A stretch of DNA of 64,000 nucleotides from Bacteroidota bacterium (GTDB lineage: Bacteria > Bacteroidota > Bacteroidia > UKL13-3): assembly GCA_947492885.1 (NCBI GenBank), contig CANLPK010000004.1, positions 771-64,770 on the forward strand. Reading direction: 5' to 3'. Positions 968 to 2,738 of the stretch are shown one piece after another. The notes beneath the pieces were generated by a model that was not told where the DNA came from, ran no database searches, and saw only the letters and a program-made list of their open reading frames with translations. Position 1 is the stretch's first letter; each line of letters begins with the position of its first letter. Position numbers and translations under genes: made by a program.

Positions 968-1273
968 ATGCAAGCAATTAATACACCCGAAAAACAATTG
1001 GAGCACCTGCGCAAGCAAATTCATTCACAGGATCGTGAATTGTTATTGGTATTAAAAAAACGGATGCAATTGGCTTCGAAAATTGGCACTTTAAAAGCGA
1101 AAAATGATTGGGATATTGCCCAAAATGAATACTGGGAGAAAACAGTGGAAGCACGCTCGAAGCTAGCTCAAAAACTAGGTTTGAATGAGGTTTTAGTAAA
1201 ACAACTTTTTTCAAAAATTCATAGCGAATCGAAAAAAGCCCAACAAGAAATTATTACAAATCGTAAAAAATGA
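968..1273 (+). CDS. chorismate mutase (stand-alone AroQ type)
   Basis: 101-aa all-helical ORF. LEHLRKQIHSQDRELLLVLKKRMQLASKIGTLK matches the AroQ helix-1 pattern. Its stop overlaps the next start (ATGA at 1270-1273). Confidence 0.75.
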   Translation: MQAINTPEKQLEHLRKQIHSQDRELLLVLKKRMQLASKIGTLKAKNDWDIAQNEYWEKTVEARSKLAQKLGLNEVLVKQLFSKIHSESKKAQQEIITNRKK

Positions 1274-2511
1274 AACAATCAGTTATGGAGCTTATGGCTC
1301 CTGTTGGCTCCTTTGAAGCCCTCATGGCAGCCATTCAGGGAGGTGCCAATGCCATTTACTTTGGTGTAGAGCAACTTAATATGCGTACTCGATCATCGAA
1401 CAATTTCACGATTGACGACCTTGAAAAAATTGCAGCAATATGCAATGAACATTCAATTCGCTCTTATCTTACATTGAACACAGTCATCTTCGATCACGAT
1501 ATCATGCTAATGAAAAACATTGTGGATGCTGCACAAAAAAGTGGCATTAGTGCAGTCATTGCATCTGATCATGCGGTAATGAATTATGCTAAAAAAGTGG
1601 GGGTGACGGTACATGTATCTACCCAAGCCAACGTTACCAATATCGATACCATTGAGTTCTACGCTGCTTATGCCGATGTCATGGTATTGGCTCGCGAGTT
1701 GAGCTTAATGCAAGTAGCAACCATTAGTGAAGAAATTAAACGACGCGATGTTCGTGGTCCCAATGGAAAATTGGTGCGTATTGAAGTATTCGGACATGGA
1801 GCTTTGTGTATGGCTGTCTCTGGCAAATGTTATCTGAGTTTGCATACTAATTTTGCCTCGGCGAATCGTGGCGCTTGTATTCAAAACTGCCGTCATAGCT
1901 ATATTGTAACCGATAAAGAGGAGGGCACCGAATTGGAAATTGACAATGAATATATTATGTCGGCAAAAGATTTATGCACCATCGGATTTCTCGACCAAGT
2001 AATTGATGCTGGAGTGAGTGTATTGAAAATTGAAGGCCGTGGGCGCAGTGCCGATTATGTTTACACCGTTACCAAATGCTATCGGGAAGCCATCGATGCC
2101 ATTTATGGTGGATCGTATAATAAAGAAAAAGTAGCCGAATGGACCGAGCGTCTTGCCACGGTGTATAATCGCGGTTTTTGGGATGGGTATTATTTGGGGA
2201 GAACTATGGGAGAATGGAATAATGAATACGGATCGAAAGCCACAAAACGCAAAATCCATATTGGTAGAGGCCTAAATTATTTTGAGGCAGTAGGTGTTGG
2301 CGAATTTCAATTGGAATCGCATTCATTAGAAACTGGTGATGAAATTATTATCATTGGACCTACGACGGGCGTAGTGCAAATGGTGGTGAATGAAATTCGT
2401 TTGGATGATAAAAAAACAAATCAAGTACAAAAAGGAGATGTATTTTCTGTGGCTGTTGGAACAAAAATTCGACCATCAGATAAACTCTATAAACTCGTGG
2501 ATGCTACATGA
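1270..2511 (+). CDS. U32-family Fe-S protein (annotated family name: peptidase U32; RlhA/TrhP/UbiU-like)
   Basis: 413 aa. N-terminal [26 protein letters not shown] and LKIEGRGRS are U32 hallmarks. It carries an exact CX6CX15CX3C cysteine motif ([28 protein letters not shown]). Confidence 0.85.
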   Translation: [413 protein letters not shown]

Positions 2512-2738
2512 TCCGGATAACCCAACAACGCCAGAAATGTATTGGTTGCAATGCCTGTGTTGAGGTGTCTAAATTTCGTTGGCGCCTCTCTAAAAAGGAT
2601 GGTAAATGCACCCTCATTGGTGGCACCGAAAAGAAGGGTTGGTATTCGATCACCGTGGGTGACGATGAACTGGAAGAAACATTATTGGCAATTAAAAATT
2701 GTCCTGTGAATATTATTCGGGTCGAAACCCTCAAGTAA
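2508..2738 (+). CDS. small single-cluster ferredoxin
   Basis: 76 aa with CIGCNAC near the N-terminus and a distal NCP (CxxCxxC...CP). Its start overlaps the U32 stop (ATGA at 2508-2511). Confidence 0.7.
   Translation: MIRITQQRQKCIGCNACVEVSKFRWRLSKKDGKCTLIGGTEKKGWYSITVGDDELEETLLAIKNCPVNIIRVETLK

Follow-up and report, generated by a model that had tools for sequence, protein, structure and literature searches.

U32-family enzymes need prephenate and iron-sulfur (Fe-S) clusters, and in the case of UbiU/UbiV the hydroxyl oxygen itself stems from prephenate (PMC10990095). Evidence for prephenate as the oxygen donor comes from genetics and isotope labelling for UbiU/UbiV and from genetics for TrhP and RlhA (PMC10990095, PMC11574389). 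The chemistry proposed for UbiU/UbiV comprises a two-electron oxidation of the ring and delivery of hydroxide with decarboxylation of prephenate to phenylpyruvate, the Fe-S clusters passing electrons on to an acceptor (PMC10990095). Direct catalysis by U32 enzymes is undemonstrated (PMC11574389), and as of the 2024 papers that we used for the status of U32 biochemistry, no member had been reconstituted in vitro and the acceptor had not been identified (PMC10990095, PMC11574389). TrhO and TrhP are two known alternative routes to 5-hydroxyuridine at position 34 of tRNA (ho5U34) (PMC6599085, PMC12288880). Here, we analyzed a U32 gene located between a chorismate mutase (CM) gene and a ferredoxin (Fd) gene in a 64,000-nucleotide (nt) stretch of DNA (the window) from a Bacteroidota bacterium (contig CANLPK010000004.1, GCA_947492885.1, positions 771 to 64,770). 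We consider it probable that this three-gene operon encodes a prephenate-dependent tRNA U34 hydroxylase, its own ferredoxin, and a specialized CM making prephenate locally. Labels of the form L### and P#### denote loci and proteins or representatives of this analysis, respectively.

All three genes are located on the plus strand. The first (968..1273) encodes a stand-alone type II (AroQ) CM of 101 amino acids (aa), in which Pfam CM_2 was matched over the full-length model (64.9 bits versus a cutoff of 27, E 8e-18), and which belongs to the Arg51-less, U32-linked subgroup described below. The second (1270..2511) encodes a 413-aa U32-family Fe-S protein consisting of a TIM barrel and a C-terminal beta-barrel (Peptidase_U32, PF01136, 219 bits versus 22.4, E 5e-65), and the third (2508..2738) a single-cluster ferredoxin of 76 aa with the pattern CxxCxxC...CP (Fer4_15, 40 bits versus 22.4, E 6.5e-10). 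ATGA stop/start overlaps on the plus strand join the CM and U32 genes (1270..1273) and the U32 and Fd genes (2508..2511). Residues 180 to 207 of the U32 protein (1807..1890, plus strand) match CX6CX15CX3C exactly, and the four cysteines of this motif (Cys180, 187, 203, and 207) are the presumed [4Fe-4S] ligands. Its C-terminal barrel (2242..2502, plus strand) was recognized by structure model, Foldseek, and homology as U32_C-like and EF-Tu domain-2-like, and is proposed to be a tRNA-binding module. An earlier note on this DNA had described three open reading frames coupled by these two overlaps, namely, a 101-aa stand-alone AroQ protein, a U32 protein with the exact cysteine motif, and a 76-aa CxxCxxC...CP ferredoxin, and our analysis confirmed this anatomy throughout.

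In public gene calls for the identical sequence, the U32 protein starts at Met6 (408 aa), which leaves an 11-nt gap and removes the first overlap. U32 homologues have no Met at position 6, their N-terminal extension of 4 to 6 residues fits a start at Met1, and CM/U32 overlaps recur elsewhere (ATGA in L017, L020, L101, and L104; 14 nt in L089 and L095). For these reasons, the Met1 start (1270) is the better call and the longer protein was kept. The U32 and Fd genes are separated by −6 to +12 nt in most relatives. The intergenic region 5′ of the operon (737..967, plus strand) does not contain an exact Bacteroidota −7 motif (TAnnTTTG); a version with one mismatch, TACTTTCG at 930 to 937, might serve as a promoter element. 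A scan for sigma-70 promoters and terminators yielded nothing above shuffled sequences and was uninformative.

The CX6CX15CX3C motif is family defining and essential for U32 proteins (PMC11574389, PMC10990095), and its cysteines were invariant in an alignment of 15 relatives. Hundreds of close U32 relatives were found; the best 120 listed were 69 to 100% identical to the window protein, and named relatives among the matches listed came from Flavobacteriales, Sphingobacteriales, Saprospiraceae, and other Bacteroidota. Identity to relatives across the Bacteroidota ranged from 57 to 82%. The protein stayed below every NCBIfam equivalog cutoff tested, including those for TrhP (NF011996, 181.4 bits versus 534), UbiU (162 versus 440), and UbiV (47 versus 275) (NF047963 and NF047965 for UbiU/UbiV). 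BLASTP identities to the Escherichia coli proteins were 28% for TrhP, 30% for UbiU, and 31% for RlhA, and a neighbor-joining tree grouped all Bacteroidota U32 proteins in a single compact clade that excluded the four paralogues of E. coli. Nevertheless, hhalign aligned residues 6 to 399 with residues 2 to 426 of E. coli TrhP at 99.9% probability, the C-terminal domain included. The AlphaFold model (mean pLDDT 71.6) displayed a TIM barrel followed by a C-terminal beta-barrel; the loop with the cysteine motif was disordered, as expected without a cluster, and most of the C-terminal barrel had pLDDT values of 81 to 94, with one 10-residue block at 72. Using Foldseek, this barrel was matched to the C-terminal domain of a Geobacillus U32 protein (4HE5/4HE6; TM score 0.80 to 0.87, rmsd 1.2 to 1.4 Å). 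Besides this C-terminal domain match, the whole model retrieved only generic TIM barrels, together with EF-Tu and IF2, looser matches for which the barrel is plausibly responsible. The Pfam model for the C-terminal domain (PF16325) was the joint top match with MIT_C but remained subthreshold (E 0.12), and a sequence search of the PDB with the U32 protein gave no match at an E value of ≤1e-3. DUF3656 was absent from the window protein by Pfam and was detected in the E. coli RlhA control. Thus, the U32 protein is not an equivalog of TrhP, UbiU, UbiV, or RlhA, yet has TrhP-type architecture, and we regard it as a candidate prephenate-dependent tRNA U34 hydroxylase.

We surveyed the U32 neighborhood in one genome per species, which gave 80 loci with U32 proteins 57 to 74% identical to that of the window. 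TrhP of E. coli (YegQ) and TrhP1 of Bacillus subtilis (YrrO) are like the window protein in the U32 domain, the CX6CX15CX3C motif, and the C-terminal beta-barrel. TrhP further resembles it in the link to prephenate, which for the window protein runs through the dedicated CM; a link to TrhO was seen for relatives of the window protein. In contrast to TrhP, to which it is only 28% identical, the window protein lacks the insertion of about 50 residues after the cysteine motif, has its own one-cluster Fd gene and in some lineages its own CM gene, and has no adjacent TrhP2-like paralogue. UbiU/UbiV, which act with UbiT (PMC10990095), share the U32 Fe-S family and the cysteine motif and provide the mechanistic template, but UbiU lacks the C-terminal barrel. 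No second full-length U32 gene was present in the loci, the only other matches being a U32 C-terminal domain borne by TrhO in L077 and L080, and SCP2 (UbiT) was not among the 25 most frequent upstream or downstream neighbor families listed. The hosts of window-type U32 proteins use menaquinone. RlhA, the 23S rRNA ho5C2501 synthase (5-hydroxycytidine; PMC5727448), has the U32 domain in common with the window protein and is prephenate and Fe-S dependent, but carries DUF3656, which is unique to RlhA (PMC5727448) and missing here; RlhA homologues exist separately in Bacteroidia (PMC5727448). PrtC of Porphyromonas gingivalis, the founding U32 "collagenase," belongs to a separate subfamily, PepU32#4 (PMC5727448). 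Bacteroidales U32 proteins of the same length and 58 to 61% identity fell into the same clade as the window protein, which is therefore probably of the PrtC type (PepU32#4), an assignment made through these orthologues and not through PrtC itself. Unlike the window locus, the Bacteroidales clade lacks an adjacent ferredoxin gene.

The adjacent ferredoxin was the most constant feature of the surveyed loci. An iterated search, assessable in 79 of the 80, revealed an Fd gene directly 3′ of the U32 gene in 63 loci (gaps of −6 to +98 nt) and once at a distance of 1.7 kb. Loci without Fd (L047, L058, L061, L063, L064, L066 to L068, L070, L071, L074, L075, and L082 to L084) were confined to a Bacteroidales/Marinilabiliales-type clade (Bacteroides, Parabacteroides, Ancylomarina, Carboxylicivirga, and others), in which few members retain it, and every other lineage in the U32 tree has kept the adjacent gene. 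That clade possibly lacks a dedicated gene because anaerobes have many ferredoxins. All-against-all clustering of the neighbors in the 80 loci revealed no family besides Fd in more than 7 loci. The U32-Fd pair is hence a conserved unit across most Bacteroidota, Ignavibacteria, and Balneolia, and the pairing of ferredoxin and U32 proposed in the earlier note is borne out: the conserved adjacency supports Fd as a dedicated electron-transfer partner of U32. Cys11, Cys14, Cys17, and Cys65, the last followed by Pro, were conserved in at least 97% of 67 Fd homologues. Since a fifth cysteine (C34) is poorly kept among homologues, the protein was assigned as a one-cluster ferredoxin. E. coli YfhL is a two-cluster ferredoxin, which TrhP activity reportedly needs, as Lauhon is said to have found in 2019. 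Given one cluster versus two, the window Fd and YfhL are probably not homologous partners.

A CM gene adjoined U32 in 4 of the 80 species loci, to which the window and L089 (an 82%-identical relative, P0007, with the order CM-U32-Fd) add two. In L017 and L020, the CM gene is on the same strand with an ATGA overlap, and in L034 and L056 it is divergently transcribed. In a Pfam census of 76 immediate upstream neighbors, CM_2, with these 4 members, shared the top rank among the families, none having been missed, against about 0.05 adjacencies expected by chance for a gene of one or two copies (our estimate). On the U32 tree, the CM-U32 cases occupied no fewer than four distinct positions. Thus, the CM-U32-Fd arrangement arose or persisted in at least four tree places and is a minority state. 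L022 and L024 are the sisters of L017 and L020; in both, U32 directly adjoins a Trp-dioxygenase gene and no CM gene intervenes.

We then approached the linkage from the side of the mutase. When 1.84 billion representatives were searched exhaustively with phmmer, the window CM was alone in its 50% cluster, with next relatives at only about 60 bits. A word-indexed homologue search with the CM alone returned only 4 close relatives. No NCBIfam CM model reached its cutoff (best TIGR01791, 54.6 bits versus 66.95). In EcCM numbering, used throughout unless stated otherwise, the protein keeps R11, R28, K39, S84, and Q88 and carries the changes D48 to Q, E52 to W, and R51 to Y. Among 153 aligned matches (the 150 closest representatives and three close relatives), Q48/W52 occurred in 116, and R11, R28, K39, S84, and Q88 were kept. 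The Q48/W52 pair was also present in CM domains fused to DAHP synthase (P0198 and P0211) or prephenate dehydrogenase (P0199 and P0270); a further DAHP-synthase fusion (P0160) had W52 and not Q48. An altered C4-OH pocket or a nonmutase function suggested by D48Q/E52W was rejected on these grounds, the pair being normal in a clade that includes biosynthetic fusions. Arg51, on the other hand, was kept in 120 of the 153 matches and in the DAHP-synthase fusion fragments. The four same-strand CMs with U32 linkage have Y, F, T, or V in its place, as do about 30 further stand-alone representatives. In the aligned sequences, U32 linkage goes along with the loss of Arg51 and with neither of the other two changes. 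Eight residues (R15, D22, R32, K43, Q52, W56, S88, and Q92 in window numbering) were invariant in 32 Arg51-less CMs, among them the equivalents of the substrate-binding residues R11, R28, K39, S84, and Q88, at an overall identity of about 30%. Several of the closest CM relatives (P0126, P0127, P0129, P0138, P0139, P0145, P0149, and P0191) are proteins of about 190 to 210 aa with two CM_2 stretches, i.e., tandem AroQ proteins.

A profile built from these 32 sequences retrieved further members, and six diverse Arg51-less CMs were looked up on their contigs. All six lay directly 5′ of a U32 orthologue, in at least four different flanking contexts. P0162 (L095:3501-6052) overlaps its U32 gene, has no adjacent one-cluster Fd, and is followed by a convergent chorismate synthase gene (aroC) directly downstream. 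P0263 is separated from U32 by 103 nt; P0298 and P0294 lie in the order homogentisate dioxygenase, HPPD, desaturase, Trp 2,3-dioxygenase, CM, U32, Fd, and PTPS; P0293 is found in CM-U32-Fd-PTPS, and P0305 in CM-U32-Fd behind a Crp-like regulator. The U32 partners of the six CMs were 66 to 71% identical to the window protein, and the cysteine-motif pattern was the same in every copy covering it. The only Arg51-type control with sufficient contig, P0318, proved to be the tail of a DAHP synthase gene (fused or frameshifted) with no U32 gene nearby; the relatives with Arg51 that we checked are fusion proteins with DAHP synthase or prephenate dehydrogenase. Like the window CM, these fused AroQ domains belong to the Q48/W52 clade and have R11, R28, K39, S84, and Q88, but the window CM differs from them in being stand-alone, in having lost Arg51, and in its linkage to U32 instead of aromatic amino-acid genes. 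As flanking genes vary while the CM-U32 junction stays, selection acts on the linkage itself. The CM is thus very probably a dedicated U32 partner and not a housekeeping mutase, as the earlier note had suspected when it doubted a Phe/Tyr role. That note had also named a nonconserved adjacency as the observation that would speak against its proposal; the forward survey did find the adjacency nonconserved, and it was only the reverse survey of Arg51-less CMs that overturned this objection. L095 does contain a gene for a two-cluster ferredoxin, with its start about 2.3 kb downstream of the U32 gene.

Pointers to the substrate came mainly from trhO. In Flavobacterium spp., a TrhO equivalog abuts U32(-Fd) directly upstream (L077:3819-5258 and L080:3843-5258). 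Both proteins exceeded the cutoff of NF001133, the oxygen-dependent tRNA uridine(34) hydroxylase (259 and 262 bits versus 170), and contain the CTGGIRC motif. Their C terminus bears an additional domain of about 87 aa, which is 54 to 56% identical to the barrel of the neighboring U32 protein and 36% identical to that of the window, and the window barrel was homologous to it with an E value of 1e-13. The extra domain also gave a subthreshold Pfam match to EF-Tu domain 2. It looks as if the U32 barrel had been copied between two otherwise unrelated ho5U enzymes. TrhO was also located directly upstream of U32-Fd in L055 (332-1378) and 2.4 kb away in L026. The co-location of trhO and the transfer of the barrel onto TrhO argue for a common substrate of TrhO and U32, with the barrel as the part that recognizes it. 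Dus genes directly upstream of U32 in two loci are a weak pointer to tRNA, and PTPS/QueD genes downstream in four loci are ambiguous, fitting either queuosine or a pterin in an aromatic-catabolism cluster. From the TrhP-like architecture, the trhO adjacency, and the shared C-terminal domain, tRNA U34 emerges as the best-supported candidate substrate, which agrees with the preference of the earlier note for RNA and narrows it. In one lineage (L017, L020, L101, L102, L105, and L106), genes for homogentisate dioxygenase, HPPD, a fatty-acid-desaturase-like protein, and Trp 2,3-dioxygenase accompany CM-U32-Fd and PTPS.

Taken together, these observations suggest the following mechanism. The U32 protein would be functionally analogous to TrhP and would be the enzyme with which this phylum hydroxylates uridine 34 of tRNA at position 5, depending on prephenate and not on O2. 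By analogy with UbiU/UbiV, the base would lose two electrons, which would pass to the enzyme cluster and from there to the ferredoxin, and the hydroxyl would be delivered from C4 of prephenate, which would collapse to phenylpyruvate and CO2. In the window lineage and a scattered minority of others, the translationally coupled upstream Arg51-less CM would turn chorismate into prephenate at the site of use. Its linkage to U32 is a matter of observation; beyond that, the CM may form a complex with U32 and would not feed Phe/Tyr synthesis. The ferredoxin would serve as electron relay or acceptor, so its oxidized form may be the substrate. The reduced ferredoxin that the earlier note had foreseen for a reconstitution may accordingly have the wrong redox state, as the published proposal calls for an electron acceptor (PMC10990095). 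The idea of a self-contained hydroxylase module survives in substance by comparative genomics, with three amendments: the conserved unit is U32-Fd, the CM is a minority accessory, and the ferredoxin may either accept electrons or donate them.

Several observations weigh against a tRNA U34 hydroxylase with its own prephenate supply. The U32 protein is about equally distant (28 to 31% identity) from TrhP, UbiU, and RlhA, far below the TrhP cutoff and under those of all equivalogs, and no ho5U-consuming (xo5U) methyltransferase or CmoA/B was found among the surveyed U32 neighbors. The aromatic-catabolism setting in one lineage could hint at a small-molecule substrate. All these points would fit the same U32-Fd(-CM) enzyme acting in a prephenate-dependent manner on something else, such as rRNA (ho5C) or a small aromatic, pterin, or quinone-type metabolite; so would the position of that lineage's module between the Trp 2,3-dioxygenase/HPPD/homogentisate dioxygenase genes and the PTPS gene, and the chorismate synthase gene adjoining in L095. 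It is conceivable that phenylpyruvate, the predicted U32 by-product, forms a metabolic connection to the aromatic-catabolism cluster. We nevertheless regard a different substrate as somewhat unlikely: the protein is without DUF3656, the defining domain of RlhA, no UbiV- or UbiT-like partner occurred in the surveyed loci, the TrhP-type C-terminal barrel is present here and absent from UbiU, the trhO adjacency and domain sharing favor tRNA U34, and the aromatic-catabolism setting is limited to one clade. A role as a collagenase or peptidase, suggested by the name of the family and by the literature on P. gingivalis PrtC, is hardly tenable. It is backed by historical annotation only, i.e., homologues named "putative protease" or "U32 family peptidase" and the PrtC collagenase reports cited in PMC5727448, and it stands opposed to the invariant Fe-S motif, the dedicated ferredoxin and CM, the trhO linkage, and the connection of all characterized U32 proteins with O2-independent hydroxylation (PMC10990095, PMC11574389).

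The role of the mutase deserves similar scrutiny. A CM is missing in about 93% of the sampled species, including the sister lineage with P0009 and P0010 (78 to 79% identical), the closest without CM, and likewise in P0012 (74%), so that the AroQ-U32-ferredoxin triple whose conservation the earlier note had wished to see examined is not conserved. As so few relatives have the CM, the enzyme would normally draw on the cellular prephenate pool, with the CM as an accessory. The missing adjacency in most relatives, together with the lack of a second CM anywhere in the 64-kb window, would suit a housekeeping Phe/Tyr mutase placed beside U32 incidentally. This is very improbable in light of the six of six subgroup members beside U32 in differing contexts, the recurrent CM/U32 stop/start overlaps, the 4 adjacencies seen against the chance estimate, and the separate Arg51-bearing group formed by the biosynthetic fusions; moreover, no Phe/Tyr biosynthesis gene lies beside any of the six, the aroC of L095 belonging to the common pathway. 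Loss of Arg51 could, however, weaken or alter the mutase. The AroQ protein might thus be a prephenate- or chorismate-binding or regulatory subunit of U32, or a mutase active only when docked, like MtCM with DAHP synthase. In the subgroup linked to U32, Arg51 has given way to Y, F, V, T, I, H, or Q, but those biosynthetic fusion relatives that we checked retain it; the window protein scores below the NCBIfam equivalog cutoffs for CMs, translational coupling suggests stoichiometric coproduction, and the CM diverges much faster than its partners (window versus L089: CM, 30% identity; U32, 82%; Fd, 80%). Yet all other ligand-contacting residues are invariant, as in a functioning active site, and Q48/W52 also occurs in DAHP-synthase- and prephenate-dehydrogenase-fused domains of biosynthetic architecture; we regard such a binding, regulatory, or docking-dependent AroQ as distinctly unlikely. 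A further difficulty lies with the ferredoxin, as a [4Fe-4S] protein of low potential would be an unusual choice for oxidizing an aromatic ring. On balance, we favor the prephenate-dependent tRNA U34 hydroxylase with its own ferredoxin and prephenate-making CM. More tentatively, we put forward a stronger version, possible but not the one we would expect, in which the Arg51-less AroQ is an obligate subunit that docks onto PrtC-type U32 and channels or presents prephenate, would complete together with Fd an O2-independent tRNA U34 hydroxylase, and in which the barrel would be a tRNA-recognition module common to the U32 and TrhO pathways, which are otherwise unrelated.

The genes around the operon appear to be unrelated to it. 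An HscA-type Fe-S chaperone gene (2876-4732; NCBIfam, 713 bits) begins 138 nt downstream of Fd, with no HscB or IscU gene adjoining; a −7-like motif, TAAATTTG, at 2806 to 2813 lies 62 nt upstream of its start, and HscA is probably a separate transcription unit. A DsrE2-like sulfur carrier gene (254-736) is located just upstream of the operon, and on a longer public contig (L001:7383-9452) DsrC-like and FCSD/SQR-like (Pyr_redox_2) genes stand in front of it. Together they make up a small cluster of the sulfur-oxidation type, whose position beside U32 is not conserved. HscA and DsrE2 were considered as parts of the module and rejected, as neither was near U32 in any of the 80 species loci and HscA has its own −7-like motif. 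Exact TAnnTTTG motifs were found 5 to 30 nt upstream of many plus-strand starts (e.g., 5498, 5944, 11660, 21620, 27643, 37543, 39956, and 51202), in line with Bacteroidota-type promoters; their total in the window was 90, not above the shuffled expectation of 80 ± 8. The region from 14562 to 32452 contains ordinary housekeeping genes, encoding an SNF2 helicase, a papain-like protease, UvrC, a GNAT protein, a PLD-like protein, a Wzy-type ligase, a 2-oxoacid dehydrogenase E2, a PKD-domain protein, a RadA-like ATPase, and AccD. No aromatic amino-acid or tRNA-modification genes were found in this surveyed part of the window.

In full-text literature searches, we came across no description of an operon combining CM, U32, and ferredoxin genes, of CMs forming a subgroup linked to U32, or of TrhO bearing a U32 C-terminal domain. 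The system belongs to the known prephenate-dependent U32 hydroxylases and is not a new category. It offers an independent genomic tie to prephenate for a further U32 subfamily, which is widespread in Bacteroidota and probably includes PrtC. The adjacent ferredoxin provides a named redox partner conserved over most of the phylum, and the CMs constitute a specialized subgroup whose only visible role is serving U32. The trhO adjacency and domain sharing supply a substrate clue to tRNA U34, and three small cotranslated proteins make a compact, defined set for an in vitro assay of prephenate chemistry. If our interpretation is true, the function of a family still widely annotated as protease would be reassigned.

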